A stretch of 57,583 nucleotides of DNA from Thelocarpon superellum (Eukaryota): assembly GCA_026025795.1 (NCBI GenBank), contig JAPEUG010000069.1:1-57583 (forward strand). Direction: 5' to 3'. Shown one piece after another: positions 6,622 through 53,934 of this stretch. Below the pieces are notes generated by a model. The model was not told the origin of the DNA. It ran no database searches and saw nothing but the letters and a program-made list of their open reading frames with translations. The stretch's first letter is position 1. Each line of letters opens with the position of its first letter. Both the position numbers and the translations under genes were made by a program.

Positions 6622-9600
6622 TCACTTTCCAATGCCCACGACGATCATGCTGACCACGATGCCGATCACGGCTCCGACCGCAAGCGCCCACCCGGCGACC
6701 AGTGCCACCTTCTTCTCGCGCCGGCCCAAGCTGGTCACGTCGCCGCTCGTCAGGGAGGAGATCATGACGTCAAGCATGCCATAGCCATACAGGAGCAGGA
6801 GCGGCGGGAAGAGGAGGCACAGCGCGAGGATGGAGCGCGAGAGGATCCGTTTGCGATGGTACGTCGACGCGCGGGTCGACGATCCTTCTCGCGTCTGACG
6901 GTACAGGTGGTAGTCGAAGCCGAGGTAGGCCTCCGAGTCGCGTGGCGTCGGCAGGCGCGGCGTCGGATTGATGCAGAAGGGCTCGTACGACGGGAATTCG
7001 GTGAGACGCTTGGCCGCGGCCGGGGATGGATTCAGCAGGCTGCTGCGCAGGCTCAAGAACGAGAGAGGTCGGCCTCCACGGCGCGATGGCGGACGGGCAG
7101 GCGACGGCGTGAAGGCGCGAGGCAAGAGTCCTTCGGCCGCGAGGAGGTCACGATGTGCCCGGATCTGCTCGTACAACACTCCGGGCTGCTGCTTAGCGGG
7201 CGCCGCCGCTTCGTCGAGCTCGAGGTGTGCCGCGGGCGGCTGCGCCGGGGCCGCCTCGATCCGATCCAGAGTGGGGGTGGTGTCGTGGCCCGGGCTGCTG
7301 CTGCTCCACATGATCCCGGGACTGCTAGCGTCTGCCAGGCTGCTGCCCACCTGGCGCATCCCCGTGCCCTCGGGCGTACCGGTGATGTTGGCCTTGGGCC
7401 CCAGCAGCGTGACCTTGGCGAAGCTCCCGTTGGCCCCCGGCACGGCCGAGGAATCGGGCAGGTTACGGACCGACTCGCTGAAGGCGTCCATCCAGATCGA
7501 TGACGGGGACGATCCCGCCGCCCGGTAGGTGTTGGGATGATCGTTGGAGCCGTTGCGTAGGCGGAAGGCGCGTTCGTCGGCCGCCGCTCGCAGGGCGTCG
7601 TCAGAGCTCGAGCCGAATGGCCGGTACAGCTCGATCAACGACGACTCGGTCGCGCCCGCAGGACGACTTAGCCGGCTCGGCAGGCGGGAGGTCGGGTCAT
7701 AAGGGGGTGTGGAGGGGCGCAGCAGCGTCTGGGTCGATCCCATGACGACCGGGGGCGATGACTTGAACGGATGCACATGGTCCTGCGAGAGCGGGCTGGG
7801 GTGCCGGTAGAGCTTGTTCGATAGATGATGGGCCGGTGCAGGTTTGGTCAGGGTGTTGTAGTGCGGTAACAGCACTGGCGTGCCGTCGGGCATCGTCTCC
7901 TGCACCCGGTACACGTGCTCGTACTCGTTGTCCGCCGGGTGATGGGGGAAGAGTTGGCTGTCGCGCAAGAAACCCAATTCTCGCCCCTCCGGACCCAGGC
8001 TGGCATAGCTAGAGTAATTGGCCAGACTGCTCCCCGTCGTCCCGTGCGTCATTTCCATCCGCGTTCCGGCTCGACTGAGTCGGCCCTCGTCGATGGTCTC
8101 CCAATCCCCATCCTCGTCCTCGTGATGCGTCTCCGGCAGGGTGATGCTATGATCGGATCCCGATCCCGATCCCGATCCCGATCCCGACCTCGACCCTCTC
8201 GTTGACGGGAGTGAGGCCGCGAAGCTGCCCTTGTCAGTGATGGGTCGCCGCAGCGTCGCGGGTCGCGCTGGCGGCACTCCCGATTCTTCGTCGACGAAGC
8301 CTGACTCTGACGGACCATGGCCGCTGTCATCCGACACCATGCTTTCCAAGTGGCCGGACGAGTCACGGCTCGACGAGTGGTGGTCAGCACCGTGATCGGC
8401 GTTATTGGCGTTCTCGTTGTAGACGATGAGGCTGCTTCGCTGATGGAGGGCGGAGTTGAGTCCGGCAAAGCGGCGTAATTCCGAGTCGATCTCGGCATCA
8501 AGATGCCTCGTGGCCGCCACGCTCGCGGCATTGGTCAGGTTTCGAGTAATCCGCTCGACTTGGTGGCGCGGCGTGACGGTACGCGTGACCCGCGTCGGGA
8601 TTCCGTTGGAGCTTTGGCTAGAGTGGCCTCGCTGCAACTCGGGGCGACCCTTGAGGTACTGTGGAAAGGTGTTGGCCGGTGAGGGCCGGGGGACGTTGGT
8701 CGACCGCTCCCCTAACGGCGAGGCCTGGGGAAGACGTGGCAAGTCGCCCGTGGACGCCTCCGTATCCGAGTCCGTGGTCTTCGGTTCCGCAATCGTCGAC
8801 TGCGACGGAAGGTCGAGCAGGACACGCGTGTCGCCATACGACGAATGATGGGACAAGCCTTCGACCGAGGTCGAGTTGTGCCGGCTGAAGAGCACGGCGG
8901 GCCGGGGCGAGGACGAGGGCGGAGGGGGCGGCAGCGGTGAAGTGGGAGGTTGCCCTGACGGCGATGAGGGTGGGGCATGGCCACGCACAAGCGACGTCCG
9001 AGGACTGATGTTCATGGTCTCGCGCAGGCCGGGGCGGCGGAGGTCATGAGGCACAAGACCAAAGTCAAAGGTGCCTAGGCCCGTCTCGCCATCATGCACC
9101 GCTCCCGTGCGACTGTCTTCGCGCACACGGTGTTGTCCGTCAAAGCGTTTGGCGATATCTGCGTGGCTCGTGCTGAAGATGGCGCTGCTCTTGGGTGCCG
9201 GTGGACAGGAGGCGGTGTTCTCGTCATCATCAAAGTCGTCGTCCATGGGAGCGTCCACGAGGGCCACGCGAAATGGAGGCGTATCGTGGAGCTTTCCGGC
9301 GGGCCAGACGCTCGACGGAGTCTCATCCATGTCCTGTCGATGAGCTGTGGTCGCCATGAAGACGGCGCGCGTGGCCGTTTCTACGGACACGTCTGTCTCC
9401 TCTGCGTCGGTCGATGGAGCGCCAAAGAAGGCGTCGGCCAGCTCGGCCGGGGGTTGCAAGGGGAACGTCGGTGCTTCGGCCCGGTCTTCTGGGCTCTCGG
9501 CGGCGTCGAGCCACGAGCGGCCCGGGCCTGTGACAGCCGAGGCAGGGGATGACGGCAAATGCATCTTGTAGGGCTCGATGGTCTCGAGTGACTTTAGACG

Positions 9601-44098: not shown

Positions 44099-44650
44099 TC
44101 ACAGTTCTTTGGCGGGGCCGCCGGAGTTAGAGCCCGCGGCGACGCTTGGCGGAGCCGCCCCGCCGTACGCGGCGAACTTCTTCAGGTCTTCCATCCTCAC
44201 ACTGTCCAATGCTTTTTGGTGTGTGGCGTGTAAGAAAACCCTGGGCCGGTCAGCGCGTGTGATCGTTGCAATGCACTGGAGTGCCAGGGACAATGACGCA
44301 CTTGGGCACGATGGGATCGTCGTCACTCTTTCGGGCCATGAACGCCTCCTTCCACCGTCCTGCACACAGACACCACTTGCACCCGCCCGTCAAGCCAATG
44401 GTGCGCAGATCGTTTCCGCGCGAGGCGCTGAAGGCAAGGAACTCATCCGTAACCTCAGCTAGATGGTCCCCTCTGGCGTCAGTGCCATTTCCCGGGAGGT
44501 TAAGCCGCTCGGGAAAGCTGCACCTGCTACGGCATGATTTCCTCCATCTTCAGGCCCCACATCGCAATAACCGTTCCGGTAGAATCCCGTCATGGGACTG
44601 GTCGAGAAGAGGCCAAGCGGTTTGTTGAGCACTGGCGGCAATGCCGTCAT
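44099..44650 (-). CDS. DUF2237-family protein; introns 44459-44523 and 44241-44301
   Basis: Spliced PMTGFYRNGYCDVGPEDGGNHAVA|AEVTDEFLAFSASRGNDLRTIGLTGGCKWCLCAGRWKEA...VPK|VFLHATHQKAL, matching the family pattern (TGFYRxGxC, H, WCLCAxRW, LxATH). Confidence 0.85.
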
Positions 44651-46165
44651 GTCAATTGCGGCACGGTGGTCGGGACGAAGCACGAATGGTGCTGCTTACC
44701 ACTGAGGCTGGTGGCCGAAGATCTCGAAGCCATGATGGAAATGGCAAGCAGTAGGAGAGACCCAAATGGAATGAAGTATCGGCAGATGCACATGTGTAAG
44801 CGGAGATGCATAGGAAGCCGGACGACTGCGGCAACCCGCTCAACAGCGATGTCACCGCTCGCGTGTGGGTGTGGTCCTCAGTATCTACCTTGGTACAGCA
44901 CGTCCGGCAGCGGCCAAAGCGCCTTAGTTAAGCAGATACCAGTCGACCGGCTCGCCCGCTCATCATGACGCAATGCCCGAGGGTCGATGGATGAGCAATG
45001 CTCTACGCTTGTAGCAGTCCTGTAGGTAAGTGATCGAAATGCTCCGTGCTCCGCGCTCCGCAAACGACTAGTCGAGGCATTGTTAGGGACAAGAGGTGGG
45101 CGAACACCATGGCCGACCACGCTCACCTCCAGTACGTTCTTATCAACCCGGCGGATCAAGGGTCGTCTAAAAGCCTTTGCATAGGTGAAGAGTATGCCCT
45201 TGGTCACAGTGGTTACAGGTCCCTTTTCCGTACCGCTTGCGGCTTGTACGTGGCTATGTAAGAGATTTCAGGCGGCTGGGTCAAGTTACGATTTTCGCCC
45301 ACTTTTGTCGTGTCACGAAACGGTGAGAATATCTGCCTACGCCGTGCGTATACTTAAGACCTGCTCCGTAGGAACGTGCTTGCACCGCGTGGTAGATTTT
45401 CCACAGACACTCTTCTCCAACGCCGTGCCGCCCTCGCAGACGGCGACATTGGGGCCCGTGCGGCAGACTTGATTGTGCCAGACATTTTGCTATCGTAGGT
45501 TTGATGAGGCCACACCTCCTTCCCTTCTCATAGCTAGCACCGGCTGAGCCTGAATCGCGACCACGCCTTTCATCGAGCCTTTTCGTACGTTGATGTCTCG
45601 CCACTACCGCATGGTTTGGAGGGAATGTCAGAAATCGCTCTGCCTGGCATCGGCATATCTCATCCGGCATAGTTCGATATAGGTACCATGCACTAGGATG
45701 AAAGAAATGCCATGTTGCCGGGCAACGTTCCGGCATCACGCGCGGTCGGCAAATCTTTCAGCCCTTGAATCCATCGGTGGACCCTCACCCCCCCGGACTT
45801 GCTGCGATGCACAGACCTTTGAGCTGTCCATGGCCTGACGCTGCCTTCCCCGCATTATTTCCAGGCACGCGGGCCCAAGATAACTCTCAATCCTGTGCTT
45901 CCCATCGGCTTGCGTAGATATCACGCATCGATGGCATTGATTCTCTTCGGCCGAGGATCGGTGCGATCAAGGTCAGGTGAGCTGGCCCGCAATGAGCATA
46001 AAGAACCCGATCCCAACGCTGCATTGCTGGCCTGGCCTCCGACGCCGCCAATGTATATCAGGCAACCGACTCTCTTGGCTCGCCACTTGATCACTCTACT
46101 TCCTGTGTTCCTTTCTAGAGAGTTGTCGGATTCTCTCAACGAGCTTCCACTGGTCCGGGCCGTGC

Positions 46166-47253
46166 ATGCTGGACCAGATGTGGAGTCCTTGTCGGACAAC
46201 CGCAGCTCTGCTCGTCTGGCTTTGCACCCTCTCGCGTGCCTCCAACATTCTGACGGCGCGGACCGGTCTCGCACGCGACTACGACGCTACTGACGATCTT
46301 GGGTTCGGAGACCTCCCCAACGCTCTCGATTTGGTACGTGTTCGGCGCAGGAACTCTCGGTGAATGACGCGATTAAGCTTTGGGCTGACACGTTGACGTC
46401 CGGGATGGAACAGATCTCCTGTACGGGGCCGCTACCAAGAGAAGGCTATCCAACGGAGTTCAGCGAAGAGGACTTCCAAGACCTCACACAGCTATGCGCA
46501 AAATGGAATGTGGGCTGCGAATGTGACCCCACTACCAAGACAGTGAAATGCCCCTCGGAAGAGGATCTCACGGGTCTCAATAATTTGGACCTTAGGAATT
46601 ATTGCCTCTCCAACACAGCGAACTGTGTGTGTCACAACGAGGACGAGGACGAGGACGAGCCAATGACGGTCCAACCAGTCAAGCACAGCTCACTCTTCCA
46701 CCACCCCCAACGCTTCGGGCCAAATGGCAAGCACTGGCAATTCGATGGCGGGGCAAGCGGCGAGGAGCAGCAACAGTGCCAGAGTAGTACGTGCTGGGAT
46801 CGAGATTCCTGCGGCGGTAATCATTGCGGCTGCGGTGCTCAAGGGATCGCGGCCATCGATAGCGGGACTCTGTTCCGCGCCTCGTGTCAGATGCTCACGG
46901 TCGTTGCTGCCGGTCTTGTGGCTCAATCGAAGGGTCACTCTCGGGGGCTGTCAGGGCTCGATAACGGCGTCGAAGGAAATACGACCCTTATGAACGGTAC
47001 CCTGCGCGACTCTGAACCCTCCCTGAACAACACTTTGCCCCCGGATCTGGCATGCCCCTGCAACTGTACCTACGTTTCCGTCGGATGCTGCAACGCGACC
47101 CTCAACCATGATGGCATTGTTTACGAGGCACCGTCGAAGAAGCTCGGCGTGCTTGAGCCCGACTCGGGTATGTGCTGCAACACCTCGTCCGGCGCGCTTC
47201 AGTCCGGTAACGCCAGTCTCACAAATGGCCGCGATTGCCTACCGGCTGACTAG
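46166..47253 (+). CDS. Putative secreted cysteine-rich glycoprotein, about 335 aa; intron 46334-46413
   Basis: Signal-peptide-like TTAALLVWLCTLSRA. A GTACGT...GCTGAC...CAG intron joins ORFs 46166-46363 and 46360-47253 in frame. Exon 2 has 22 Cys and several N-x-S/T sites; C-terminal CPCNCTYVSVGCC motif. Confidence 0.75.
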
Positions 47254-47918
47254 GGCGTGGTTGTGAGGGGAGACCTTGAGCATGGGCTGTAAGCGAAAGT
47301 CGGATTTCACGTGCTTCTCGTGTGAGGATATAACGTGCATCAGCATGAAAATCCATCCGCTTGCGAGTCACTGGTTCAGAGGTTAGCTCGTCGTACGAGG
47401 AGCCTTATCTCATGTCAACGACCACCTTGAAAGAGCACATGTCCTCCTGTAGTTGCACTTTTAGGAACACCATTGGTGCTGGCTTCTTGAGACGCTGATG
47501 CGGTTCATGTTTTCTTCATCTTCGTCCTCGTCCATTATCAAGGGTCCAGCGACGGAACGTTTAGGGTTCAGGCTACTAGCCCCGAGCGACGACCTGATAC
47601 CCGTCCGCCAAACATGCCCTTTCGGGAATGGCTCTGCCCCTCCCTCCACGATGGATGCGGCATAAAGCAATCAATTGCCGCGCCTTTTGTCCTCACGTAC
47701 GACTATGCGATACCGTGCTTATATCGTCCTATGTCACGATGTCGATGCTATCGCCACGCCAACTGCTTTGCTCCACGGATCCGTTGTTTCAATCATTCTG
47801 TCCCATTGACTAGATTGACTAGCGATTGAGCTCCCATTGATCTGCCCATCTATTGTCCAAGGTGAATACCACCATACGTCTGCGCCCCCGCAAGAACCGC
47901 CCCACTAGCTCAGGCACC

Positions 47919-48278
47919 ATGGCGGCCCTGTCTGCTCCCCTCCGCAGGATTCTGTACCGTACGTACAGCTTCATTGGCGGTCCTGTCTTTCATCGTCGCC
48001 CTCATCCGCGTCCCACACGATGCACCTGGCATCATCTGCACCACAGCTGCTACTAGTGGACCCATGGAACTGACGTATCTCGCTGGGGTCCAGCTCTACT
48101 CCTCACGCTGCTCCTCCTCTCCCCTCTCCTCGCCATGGCATCTCCAATCCCGGATCCAGTTCCGCTTCCGCGTCCGTTGCCAGGCCCAGACCCGGCCCCA
48201 ATGATCGAGATAGTGAACCCTGAAGAAGAGTCCAAATCTTCGTCGAGGAAGCCGGCGAACAACCAGATGGACTACTAG
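47919..48278 (+). CDS. Small secreted prepropeptide, 74 aa: signal peptide + (X-Pro)10 pro-region + 25-aa putative mature peptide; intron 47959-48093
   Basis: CACCATGG start context. GTACGT donor, ACTGAC branch (48069), CAG acceptor. Translation MAALSAPLRRILYPLLLTLLLLSPLLAMA|SPIPDPVPLPRPLPGPDPAP|MIEIVNPEEESKSSSRKPANNQMDY*. Confidence 0.7.
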
Positions 48279-49706
48279 ATTGGACCTGGCCGGATCACGT
48301 TCGAATGGAAATGGGAATTAGACCGTGGTGGGATATGGGCATCGGCGACCGGGACATGGGTGGGATAGATGGTGTTGGCGTGGAAGGACGAGGCTCTCTC
48401 AGGTTCGCTTCTAGACGTACACTATCAATCCAGTCGATAGCTTTGTGCCCGTATCGATCACGATCGGTACTCTACCGATGTATGGAGGCTCTGGGGCTAT
48501 TGGGCGTCGGCACTTGCTACTTTGTACCCGAAGACCGTGGTCCGATCGACCCGGAGTGGCACTATTGTGCCAAAATGATGCTCAACGCTGGACCTGGCCG
48601 CCGGCCACCGTCTCCTCGGCACGAGCAAGCTGTCCCGTTAGCTCCCGGTGTGTGGCGCAGGACGCTCTTATGCGACCACTCGACCTGTAGCAGAAGTAGA
48701 CGATGCGAACCACGTCGACATGCCACCGGAGTTCCTTGCTACCACTGCATGCTCTTGATCGCCACCTGATAGGCACGACAAGCAACTATACCGCCTGCTC
48801 GACGAGCACGTTCACTGCTCATGAGCACTTTCAACAAACACATCTCGGGGTGGCCTGTCTGCTCGCGATTGGCTCAAAGGTGTGGCTACCTGCTGCTGTC
48901 CTTGTCTCGTTGCTCTCTCTCCTGGGGCCTTGCCCTTACCAGCAGCGCTGACTCTACCATGCATGCAAGCTAACAGAGTGCGCATCACATGATAGTATAC
49001 TGCAGTGACACACACCGCAGGGACATTTGCGGACTTGGTGGGGTGGCACACCCTGGCTCAGATACCAGCCGTCCTCGTGAGCACCAGTCTCCTACACGGT
49101 CACTTGCCGTCACGTCAAGTCTTCCGGAAGACTCTCGTAGACATACATTGTCTCTCTCAGAGATAATTAGGGAGAGCCTCCAATACATATCCTCGCCTCG
49201 TGAATCTTCTAGGAAAGTGCCAACCGCTCTCACTATAACCCCTCAACATTACGGGGCCAATCCAAGGCCTCGGAACACCGAAGGATTGAAATTGGTTGGG
49301 AGCACCCCAGGTACTACCTGGAGCATGAAACATACAACAAGACCCTCGTATGATCCAATGCAAATTGTTACTTCAATATGCTACTATTCTGCTCTATCAT
49401 TGAAGGGTTCTCCGGTCATCGCGCTCGGGCTTACTATTCTTGTGGTGATGATCGTCATGTCATTCGAGACGGACTCCCGTCATAGTCTAGCTAATGCTAA
49501 GAGAATGAGAAGCATGTACAGGATGCACGCTATGCAATCAGGAGCTTCCCGGACAGCCAAAGGACAAGATTGAAACAAGTGTCACCATTTACCATGCTAA
49601 ACGGCCACTGCCGATGGCCTCATCGCATGGGAGGACCCCGGGCTCGAGCGACGCGCTTGAGCACGCGATGAGGCCAGCGACGGGAGCACCCCGGGATCGA
49701 GCGACT

Positions 49707-51415
49707 CTAGAAAGGGCTCCGGGCAATCTCCTCCTTGAGCCTGTGCAGGCGCTGGTGCATCTTCTGCACCTTGGCGACCTGCTCCGGTAGAGGACGGGAC
49801 TGCCGCATGAGCGCTCGATAGAGCCGCTCGTACTCGGGGTACTCCCGCTTGAACTTCTTCGCCTTCTCCAGGAGCGAAGATGAAGCAGCCGACGACGACC
49901 GTTTGCCCCGGGGCTCGCTGTCTTCGGCCTTGCGCTTGAGGCTCCCGGCCCCCGCCCGGACCTGAGACATCAGCGGCGTCGACGAAGACGACGACGAAGA
50001 CGACGAGCCCCGCACGTCTTCCATCTCGATCTCTGACGCGTTGGTCGGGGGCGAGGAGCCCAGCGGAGATGGAATGGGCGGTGACGTCTTCGCCGACTTC
50101 ACCGAGGTCGTACGTGGGGGGAGGGGGTGCGTCGAGCTAGGTGTGGGCTTCGGGGCGTCTTTGGTGATGCCGAGATCCACCGTGGCCGGGCCGGTCGCCG
50201 GAGCCAACCCACTGTCGGTGCGCTGGATCTTGATGGTGGGGGTGACCCCTCGGACCTGAGGTCCGTTTCGCAGCTGTAGCTTGGACAAGACGATGCCCTT
50301 GCCGCGAGAGCTTTGAGGGAGGAGCCCTTGCCACAGGGGGTCCTCCTTCGATAGCCGCAGTCGATCAAAGGCCGCCGCGGCATTGTCGACCGCAGTTTGC
50401 CGATCCTCCTGCGCGCGATAGGGGAAGTTCCACACGTCCAGGTCGCGGTAGCTCCGTTTATCTAGCATCCACGTGCCATCCTTGGCTCGCTCGCTGCACT
50501 TCCGAAGGAGCTCGAGGCACTCCTCCTTGGGACAGCAAAGCCTGTCCAGGACTTCCGCTTCCGTGGCGGGACGTAGGGCGAGCAGGTGGATGAGGGCCTT
50601 GCGGATGGCGTGGAGCCGAGCGGCCACTGGATTAGAAGGGGCCGTTGTCGATGATGGATGGTTCGACGACGGCTTGGGATATGGTGAGTGTGAGGGTCTC
50701 GTAGTAGGACTGTTGGTTATGGACTGGCCAGCACCAGAAGAGGCCCGGGAACGGCCGACCTGAAGATGAGAGGCCGCATGATTGTTCAGCCGTCCGCGTG
50801 CCGGTGTAGTCCCTGAGGGGGTGGGAGATGGTTGAGAGGCAGAGTCAGGAGGAAGTGGAGGCAATCTAGAGGCGTCCGGTAAGAATTTCGTTCTAGACGC
50901 GAAGGCCGTCAGCTGTGATACGAGAATAGGCATGAGGCCCGGAGGGCACGTACGTCCGAGCCTGTCGCTCCTGATTCAGGGCGGCCATGTTGCTTTGAAG
51001 GGCCAACAAGGCCGAGTCCGCTCCGGCCGTTCCGCCTGTGGGCCTTTGGACAACCAGTGTCGTGCTCAGACGCCCGGTGAAGAATCTCTCCGCGTCCTGT
51101 CCTGAAGGAGGAGTACGGTACAAGTCGTAGGGGAGATGCTCCGTGGCCGAGGTAATGGGGTACGAGTGACTTCCGACTTTGAGGCTCTATGAAGCTCGGT
51201 CAGCAGCGGTGACAGTAGCATGGACGGCCCGACCGGCATACCAACGCGTGCCCACAGCTGATCTGTAGTGGTTTCTTTTCTTTCTGAACAAGCTGCGCTA
51301 TTCCGTCGAGGACAGAGGCAGGAAGATACAGCTTCATAGCGCGGACGTTCTTGTTCTTGTTGGCGTTGGACCTGGATGGGCTCCAGCCAGCCGAGGGCGT
51401 CTCCATGCTAGGCAT
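49707..51415 (-). CDS. RNA polymerase II elongation factor ELL-like protein; introns 51187-51241 and 50893-50953
   Basis: Central winged-helix-like block IRKALIHLLALRP...WMLDKRSYRDLDVWNFPY. C-terminal occludin/ELL-like helices AKKFKREYPEYERLYRAL...KMHQRLHRLKEEI. Exons splice in frame. Confidence 0.75.
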
Positions 51416-53934
51416 GACAGCCAACCGCGGCGAGGGAGGTGGTGCCGGGGGACCGGTGAAGATTGAGATAGGATGTGGAAGGAGCAAGTTCTCGGAGAGG
51501 GTAGAGGTTCTAGCTGAGTCGTCCAAGGTCACGCCGGGTGGGCCTGGGAAGGTATGAGCGTGTGCTATGTCGAGGGGATCATGGCGAGCGTGAAGGTATG
51601 GGCGGAAGAGAGGTCGAGACAGAACTCGAGGTCGTGGATGGCTGCATTGAGTGGGCAACACTACGGACGAAGGACATGGACGGATAGACAATCAACAGAA
51701 AAAGGCTCGGCAAGTTGGGTGGGCGGAGAGAAGGAGGAGCAACGGAATGGATAGGAATGCAGAAGGTGGGGAGCGCAGTGCTTCGGTGCTCGGTGCTGAG
51801 GAATGTGATAGTGGAAGCGAAGCGTGGTGATTCGCACTAACTGGCAGGAACAACGGAGGGCGGCATGGTTAATACGGATTCCGGTACGAGTTTCAAGTCC
51901 TCTGCAGGGCAGCACAGCCTGGCAGTCTCTACCCAAGCCGACCGAACGAACGATTAACAAGGCTCGTCAATGGCGAGGCGGCGGAGATTGTGAGAACGTA
52001 TGGTGTCGGGTGCACTGGGCTTCGAGAGGGAAGGCGGCGGTCCGCTGTCAGCCATAGGCAGACCGAGAGGCGTGGGGCTGTCTGGCGCCAACCGCAGCGG
52101 ACATCGCCGCCCAATTCGCGATGCCTTGGTACTCTGTACGGTACATCCCCATGCCACACGGGCAACCACTGTTACTCGGCCACGAACCATCCTTTGTTCA
52201 AGGCGTAGTATGACACTACGATTGTTGCTTTTGTGTTGCCGCTCTACTGCTTGCCAGTCGGCTCCAAGCCAGGCCCTGTGATGAAGGGATCTGCTACCCG
52301 TTTCGATCTTCCTTGAGAGGTCTCTGGTGACATGCGGGGCGACGGTACCGGCGATACAGGTATGTTAGTAAGTGCGTGGTTGCTTTGACTCTGGCCCTGT
52401 GCCCGCATCCCAGCGTGGAAGGACGACGCGGCCAGACCCAGACATTCTAGCCGTCGTGTTCGAGCAGAGCGAGTAACCGCGCCCACACGCGGTACCTCTC
52501 TGCGACGAGATTCGGCCGTCTCACCGGCGCATGATGACGCCCCGCCACGCCCCCCCGTTATGTCCGGGCTCCGAATCATGGGCTCTATAATTGTCTCGGA
52601 GGCATGGACTAGAGGGGTCCAACGTGCCTCCTGCTGCACCGTTGGCTCGCAAAAGGCCAAGCAATACTTGGCCCGCAGTGCAGCGGAGTGTCGCCAACGT
52701 CATCGAGCTGGCCGCCTCGGTCTGACTTGCAGTATCAGCCTGGCCAGTGGTTGGTCAACGGATGGCCGGCGCGCCTTCTTGGGACCTTGGCGATCCCTCG
52801 CCGAGAAGGCCTGCGGATCCATAGTAGTCCGTCCCACCTTGAACGGATGGCGGGCGTGGGCTAGGATAAATGGAGGAACGCTGCCAGCCTTGGTCGAGCT
52901 AGGCTTGACTGGGAATGCGCCAGCCTCCATAGCGTTGTCCCAACCTGCGCGACTCGTCGAGAGCGGACAACCAGGAAAGCGGCAACCAGCACTTACTTGG
53001 TGGCCGGGGCGCGCCCGGCCAAAGCCACCGTCCGTACGAGTGCGTCCCCAGAGCCCGGCATGGCACCACGCGCTCCTGTGCATCCATGAAGATGATTATC
53101 GGGCGATGAAGGGGGAGCTCTGTCCTCCACCCATGTCGCTTCATTTCGCCGTGAGGTGTGATCCGTCTGCCTCGGAAGGATGTTGCCGTTGTGCTGTCGG
53201 TCCTTGGGGCGAAGCGTACGGCGGATGCTTTGTGGACGGCGTTCCAAGGACGTTTCACCAGGGCCGCTCATGGGTTTGATCGGGCCATGTAGTCTGGGTC
53301 GGCAAGGGTCGCTTGTCACCCGGGAGGCTCGCCAATGGTGTGGGACCAAAATGGAACGAGAAGTGGGCGGTCGGCAAAGCGGCCCTTCATTTCACGCGCC
53401 CTCAGAGATCCCCAGCTCGCCTGGCCGCGCCCCGGTGAAAGGGGAATCACAGAAGAATCCACCGCGCCGTGGTGAATAACGTGGGCACGTCGGCCACCAC
53501 CTCCCAGCGGTGACCATGGTAGATGTGCGTAGTGACGAGATGAATAGCATCAGTAACGACCGTCCTGGCCGGAGACGGCAGGTAGCCTTGTACGAAGCAC
53601 TTCCTTGTCCAAGCAGAGAGCCAATGGGTGTCCACAAGCCGTAGCGTTATGGCCACGGCCTAGTGCCACACCGTGCCCTTTCGTGCCATTTCTCCTCCTG
53701 AGACAGCGTCAATCGTGACCTTTCGTTCAAGCGTCGAATCTCCCGGTCCCATCGGTGGACTGTACTCCTTCCACCACTAGCCGTGAAACGTGCCTCAATT
53801 CATTCCGGTTCTGGTCTTCCGGTCGGCTCATTCGAGCATTGACGACAAGGCCGGCGACCGACGACCGACGACGTTTGTCCAGGCCCAGTGAGCTTACGGC
53901 ACGCGAACGCTCGGACGGGGCCATTGTCATCGCC

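Follow-up and report, generated by a model that had tools for sequence, protein, structure and literature searches.

The prepropeptides of melittin/aculeatoxin and of formicitoxin FRTX1 are matured by two enzymes only, signal peptidase and DPP-IV: Pro or Ala occupies alternate positions between the signal peptide and a single mature peptide, and a convertase site is absent (PMC13170668). Yeast Ste13 strips N-terminal X-Ala and X-Pro pairs stepwise, tolerates varied X and acts on foreign secreted proteins too (PMC6624476). Pairs of this kind form the spacers of ascomycete alpha-factor precursors. The alpha-factors of powdery mildews (Erysiphaceae) comprise a signal peptide and a single-copy peptide, with no KEX sites (PMC10569646). 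KEPs with STE13 signatures are non-pheromone fungal peptides behind X-Pro/X-Ala runs, some of them detected by mass spectrometry; the definition of a KEP is KEX2-flanked repeats, and surveys of fungal signalling peptides begin from such repeats in annotated proteomes (PMC6339444, PMC9769878). The Kex2 sites themselves are KR, RR and, less often, KK (PMC6339444). In the AEP and LIP2 leaders of Yarrowia lipolytica, finally, the signal peptide runs straight into an X-Ala/X-Pro stretch (PMC5959983).

The gene described here lies in the window (the whole stretch of DNA analysed, 57,583 bases), which is the complete contig C656 of a 19.2-Mb genome with 797 contigs and carries the fungal genes ATG2, TEA, DUF155, ELL and RGS. 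Its layout is that of the melittin and FRTX1 precursors; unlike those, which belong to animal venoms and yield toxic or antifungal products, it ends in an acidic, hydrophilic tail, and no sequence relationship was found. With the ascomycete alpha-factor precursors, including that of its own genome, it shares X-Pro/X-Ala spacers of varied X (the spacer of the first copy in the genome's own precursor also follows the signal peptide directly); unlike them, it has no repeats, no KR, Cys, Trp or GQ, and it occupies a different locus. Erysiphaceae alpha-factors carry a single putative STE13 pair, and their Cys/GQ core is 17-18 residues long (PMC10569646), whereas the window gene has ten pairs and no such core. 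It resembles the Yarrowia AEP and LIP2 leaders at the signal peptide, but there a pro-region comes next, then a KR site and finally a large enzyme (PMC5959983). Being single-copy and KR-free, it falls outside the definition of a KEP (PMC6339444, PMC9769878), and none of its motifs was found in four supplementary files of PMC6339444. Since it lacks the repeats and KR sites that define them, the gene belongs to neither the alpha-factor nor the KEP family.

Signal peptidase plus a DPP-type enzyme is thus a known layout; new are a fungal orphan with ten X-Pro pairs, in single copy and without KR, and a putative 25-mer without known relative in the collections searched. The literature searched, from which subscription papers and bioRxiv supplements largely fell outside, held no fungal precursor of just such layout, no MAT1-1-1-controlled non-pheromone Ste13 peptide and no report of the window gene. 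The earlier note on this DNA had raised the possibility of an undescribed peptide class. One orphan gene from so poorly sampled a lineage is no basis for such a judgement. The layout is known from melittin-type precursors, and the Kex2-free single-copy form from powdery mildews. Our preferred reading, to which we assign a probability of about 0.6, is a lineage-specific single-copy secreted prepropeptide that would be matured by signal peptidase and dipeptidyl aminopeptidase only.

A spliced gene between ELL and DUF2237

The gene starts with an ATG at 47919 on the forward strand (context CACCATGG). Coding exon 1 (47919-47958) holds the start codon and the basic n-region of the signal peptide; it is followed by an intron of 135 nt (47959-48093) with donor GTACGT, branch CTGAC at about 48070 and acceptor CAG, whose donor is the only canonical one within 47880-48450. 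Exon 2 opens with the Leu-rich h-region and the c-region (48094-48140), passes through ten X-Pro pairs (48141-48200) and a 25-residue tail running from Met-Ile to Asp-Tyr (48201-48275), and closes at a stop codon (48276-48278), giving a frame of 74 residues.

The earlier note had predicted exactly this hidden gene with one canonical intron, and had named reads over the 47958/48094 junction as its check. A 223-nt contig (depth 2.5) from run X1 bears the prediction out: it joins 47958 to 48094 and omits exactly the 135 nt GT..AG, with no mismatch to the window across 47818-47958 and three across 48094-48175. The splice support is one of three contigs from this one public run, whose RNA nature is a guess. 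Upstream, the contig covers a 5′ leader of at least 47818-47918, which contains an in-frame stop (about 47838) and lacks an ATG in all frames. As it ends within the X-Pro run, the tail and the stop codon are without read support, and the evidence for the tail of the frame is the assembly and codon usage. The latter is coding-like in the tail (CAI 0.61, GC3 0.76) and falls in the 29 codons past the stop (0.39 and 0.55); this is modest evidence, and the CAI is weak alone because 7% of 2,715 overlapping intergenic stretches reach the tail value. Stop-codon read-through was dropped in view of this fall, and an antisense gene because the splice joint reads GT..AG on the forward strand. No RNA data set is on record as containing the gene, and neighbouring genes have little or no cover in run X1; neither point has a bearing on expression. 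The gene is real, and it appears unannotated, since the exon-2 sequence is missing from the protein collection although that of its ELL neighbour is present.

The flanking genes are the anchors of a conserved block: a DUF2237 gene on the left (44253-44695, reverse strand) and an ELL-like elongation factor gene on the right (49707-51691, reverse strand, upper end approximate). DUF2237 adjoins ELL in the same orientation in 26 of 77 metagenome ELL loci; in the 18 that could be measured the gap is 657-1,014 bases (the other 8 had no match for the ELL C-terminus), and about ten of the loci are near-identical and so not independent. In the window the two anchors stand about 5 kb apart, and between them lie the gene and an upstream neighbour, a Cys-rich protein gene (46169-47253, forward strand, start approximate) with no Pfam family and, by eye, a signal-like N-terminus. 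By this comparison the two genes are a lineage-specific insertion into an old ELL-DUF2237 block. No comparable frame with a signal and an X-Pro run was seen in the 77 loci.

Two further observations concern these neighbours. The Cys-rich gene has no Pfam or Atlas match and 13 matches in its own genome, itself included; 10 of the own-genome matches listed cover a C-terminal Cys motif. ELL, DUF2237, DUF155, RGS, an RRM gene and the TEA gene (window 30219-55005) are neighbours, in shuffled order, in many metagenome loci (L055-L131).

Searches for homologues used the 60-residue exon-2 protein as query. In its own genome it matched itself and a chance His-Pro/Cys-Pro repeat (E 0.086). No candidate was found among proteins of 33-105 residues and none of 376 at E<=10 among those of 106-2000; the two matches among 1.84 billion representatives were both unrelated repeat proteins, the best Atlas match (0.79) was bacterial, none of 593 stretches of metagenome contigs matched, and Pfam returned only YnaL, at 19 bits below the cut-off of 27. 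The collections searched yielded no longer protein that contains the exon; the earlier note had named orthologs with the Pro-rich part as an ordinary linker of a longer known protein as refuting its idea. The comparison with related genomes that it had proposed gave no homologue in which to compare register or tail; synteny placed the gene in the insertion between ELL and DUF2237. Every no-homologue result is limited by the sampling of close relatives: the ELL query has 100% identity over 82% of its length to a protein assigned by its source to Thelocarpon superellum (a MAG; Pezizomycotina, order Thelocarpales), but the next matches are distant (66% over 30% of the query; 39% over 69%), so that close relatives are barely sampled.

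A dikaritin is unlikely, as contig C656 has no UstYa (DUF3328) match and all three in the genome are on contig C130. Those three (G000:C130:2593-6075) lie close together, probably represent two genes and suggest a likely dikaritin RiPP cluster.

The X-Pro run and the signal cut

The genome contains 3,216 matches to a pattern of six alternating Pro codons. Hexamer periodicity being so common, an X-Pro run would by itself mean little, and microsatellites are a fair null for it. Hexanucleotide microsatellites are abundant genome-wide (for example at window 8156-8190) and give pure X-Pro runs on translation.

The null sample consisted of 78 stretches of 10 kb (780 kb, 4% of the genome) from eight large contigs, not a random draw. 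Its six frames contain 54 X-Pro runs of at least five pairs, four of at least eight and two of at least ten. Both of the latter are microsatellites, with one and three distinct X and free-position identities of 1.0 and 0.89. The run of the window gene has eight distinct X among its ten pairs, no Pro-Pro and a free-position DNA identity of 0.32; none of the 54 sample runs has six or more distinct X, and the longer ones have at most four. The run is not a microsatellite: its pattern is held at the level of protein, not as a DNA repeat.

These data also bear on the possibility that the frame is young or non-functional and that, the genome being rich in repeats, a hexamer microsatellite in decay gave rise to it. 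The gene is an orphan, it sits in a lineage-specific insertion, and hexamer periodicity is common, all of which speak for such an origin. Yet the transcript is spliced at the predicted sites, the Pro-defining C positions are kept at 20/20 whereas only 19/40 free positions match the consensus, and coding-like codon usage ends at the stop; we regard this origin as very improbable.

The N-terminus of the frame, with its basic n-region and Leu-rich core, is signal-like. Among 18 positions tested, the (-3,-1) rule permits a cut at 3, of which one is within the hydrophobic core and the others follow residues 27 and 29. A cut after 27 leaves 11 pairs and a cut after 29 leaves 10, with the same Met-Ile end point both ways. 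The earlier note's claim that the prolines stand in dipeptide register with the signal cut thus holds for either position. From the predicted cut, where it begins, the X-Pro/X-Ala run continues unbroken for 10-11 STE13-type pairs to the start of the putative mature peptide, whose first pair fits neither pattern. Among the secreted proteins of fungi, short leaders of Ala-Pro are common. A crude single-exon scan for signal peptides in the 780-kb sample gave 42 candidates, of which 29, 10, 2 and 1 had 0, 1, 2 and 3 leading pairs, and none had more than three.

The enzyme that the earlier note had invoked is present. The genome has one DPPIV_N gene (L003; Pfam DPPIV_N and Peptidase_S9), whose product shows a cytosolic tail, one membrane segment and intact catalytic motifs (type II); membrane anchor and motifs together place it in the Ste13/Dap2 type. 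Its compartment may be the Golgi or the vacuole. Such an enzyme would clip N-terminal X-Pro from functional and non-functional products alike, so that trimming would be no proof of signalling.

Proposed maturation and the 25-residue tail

Transcription and splicing of the gene are documented by the one contig. The subsequent steps of the proposed pathway follow from sequence features: the product would enter the ER and be cut by signal peptidase after residue 27 or 29; a membrane-anchored enzyme of the Ste13/Dap2 type would then, along the secretory pathway, strip off X-Pro/X-Ala pairs, 10-11 in number, until it halts at Met-Ile. The stepwise trimming is proposed from the known specificity of the enzyme and from the genome's own alpha-factor spacers. 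The 25-mer that would be released is linear, acidic and hydrophilic, and trimming would newly expose its hydrophobic N-terminus; it could act as a diffusible cell-to-cell signal and receptor ligand. Splicing and the presence of the enzyme are directly in evidence; secretion, trimming and release of the 25-mer are predicted.

The tail has a pI of 4.6, a charge of about -2.5, a GRAVY of -1.3 and a monoisotopic mass of 2895.3 Da. It contains no Cys, Trp or KR/RR/KK, and the whole frame has no KEX2-flanked repeated cores and no KR/RR/KK site past the signal peptide. As it is neither cationic nor Cys-stabilised, a ligand with an N-terminus to unmask is likelier than a lytic peptide. On its chemistry, we put a diffusible signal, as opposed to a lytic or disulphide-stabilised antimicrobial, at somewhat short of an even chance. 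Mimicry of plant arabinogalactan-peptides or of sulphated Asp-Tyr peptides was also considered, and set aside because the tail lacks a hydrophobic C-terminus and ends with the Asp-Tyr itself.

A second cut is conceivable at the one Arg-Lys pair, which lies in the Ser-rich part of the tail, in a genome that has a Kex2-type P-domain gene; the precursor would be trimmed and the 25-mer cut again, so that the active species would be a shorter N- or C-terminal piece. The order is RK, however, with Pro next, as against the KR, RR and less often KK that Kex2 takes (PMC6339444), and we consider such a cut improbable.

A stronger alternative, but still an unlikely one, is that the whole 45-mer, with a mass of 4905.4 Da, works as a small secreted Pro-rich protein, the X-Pro run serving as a rigid, protease-resistant rod or a wall- or matrix-binding stalk that shows the charged tail. 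Alternating Pro gives extended rods; the run is all X-Pro, unlike the genome's own pheromone spacers, which are mostly X-Ala and acidic; and the gene adjoins that of another apparently secreted protein, the Cys-rich one. Against a rod, the start of the run coincides exactly with the predicted N-terminus, and its register is one that an exopeptidase of the genome would remove. It includes no Pro-Pro block, no residue shields it, and the protein lacks a hydrophobic anchor at its C-terminus.

The reading as a processed precursor is favoured by the exact splice, the Pro pattern held at protein level, the run that continues in register from the signal cut, the intact type II DPP, the alpha-pheromone spacers as an internal control and the rarity of leading runs. 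Counted against it are the lack of a homologue, the lack of reads on tail and stop, and the difference of the all-X-Pro run from the X-Ala-rich pheromone spacers. Should the 25-mer indeed be released, a set of fungal peptides missed so far would come within reach of a simple rule (signal peptide, long non-microsatellite X-Pro/X-Ala run, short tail): since KEP surveys require dibasic repeats, single-copy Kex2-free peptide hormones would escape them.

The alpha-pheromone gene and the upstream motif

A canonical alpha-pheromone precursor is encoded on another contig (G000:C701:5380-6800, L243; reverse strand). It has a signal peptide, four spaced copies of a CWRPGQSC core, KR sites and apparently one intron. 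Its four spacers comprise 6, 11, 14 and 12 X-Ala/X-Pro pairs; the first of them adjoins the signal peptide, and no dibasic site separates the two. Seven of the ten pairs of the window gene's run also occur in these spacers, a number not significant alone because 9 of the 19 X-Pro types are present there. Three earlier pattern searches for the pheromone gene had returned nothing (one among the 100 of 179 matches listed, with 2 inspected; one with 15 of 67 inspected). The four-copy gene shows that the window gene is not the alpha-factor, in keeping with the earlier note's statement that it is no canonical alpha-type pheromone. The genome also has STE2, STE3 and a MAT1-1-1 alpha box. The alpha-box gene lies at G000:C468:62636-63013 (L241).

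There remains the idea of a divergent alpha-type pheromone, similar to the single-copy Kex2-free precursors of powdery mildews, which provide the precedent (PMC10569646). The mating genes just listed are present, and motif matches lie upstream (see below). To set against this are the canonical precursor on C701 and the composition of the tail: the five mildew peptides in the supplement rows (12 of 14 files covered) keep a Cys pair and a GQ/PG turn, which the C701 gene has too and which the tail lacks. Nor does the window gene contain repeated 9-14-residue peptides flanked by KR/RR/KK, its product being one 25-residue tail. We give the idea hardly any weight.

In Aspergillus fumigatus the MAT1-1-1 consensus YYATTGAB is bound in the ppgA, preA and tomA promoters (PMC8022922). 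In the present genome exact matches occur upstream of STE3 (five), of the peptidase gene (two) and of the pheromone gene (one, at -194, in 701 bases examined), with none in about 1.4 kb upstream of STE2; the motif works as a marker at the first three. The STE3 promoter (L240:519-761) and the peptidase promoter (L003:227-268) show the Aspergillus/Penicillium motif conserved in a distant lineage.

Upstream of the window gene lies a cluster (47789-47857), noticed post hoc, of five ATTGA/TCAAT words (47789-47840) and one CTATTG, possible alpha-box sites. Two exact YYATTGAB matches, also noticed post hoc, stand at 47803 (-116) and 47834 (-85) relative to the ATG, so that the upstream motif may be the same as that of the alpha-factor gene. 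Of 5,148 bins of 150 bases, 4 contain at least two matches, as do 8 of 2,800 GC-matched overlapping bins and 1 of 181 promoter-like stretches. Against the ATTGA cluster, 73 of 955 bins contain a 5-mer with five copies or more, the cluster is in part a short duplication, and the 47834 site falls in the transcribed leader. Both sites are of a weaker form: neither reads YTATTGA, as 6 of the 7 STE3 and peptidase sites do (the pheromone site is without it too). We think it rather unlikely, on these words, that they are true MAT1-1-1 sites.

Equally doubtful is the further proposal of a second mating-type-specific signal, which would share MAT1-1-1 control with STE3, the peptidase and the alpha-factor, owe its maturation to Ste13 only and be unrelated in sequence to the alpha-factor, an example of single-copy Kex2-free hormones. 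Were the sites true, the mating programme of filamentous ascomycetes would gain one more peptide; should neither they nor the release of the 25-mer hold, the gene would be another orphan small secreted protein.

More paired MAT1-1-1-like sites, marking candidate targets, occur at G000:C273:3191, C167:16852, C216:8398, C101:64326, C38:23516, C423:10926 and C490:17756. The search for motif pairs also led to G000:C190:66000-67300 (L242), which we take to be the decayed remains of a Ty3/gypsy-like reverse transcriptase, whose in-frame stops suggest RIP; words similar to it are found at C190:71749 and C668:229.
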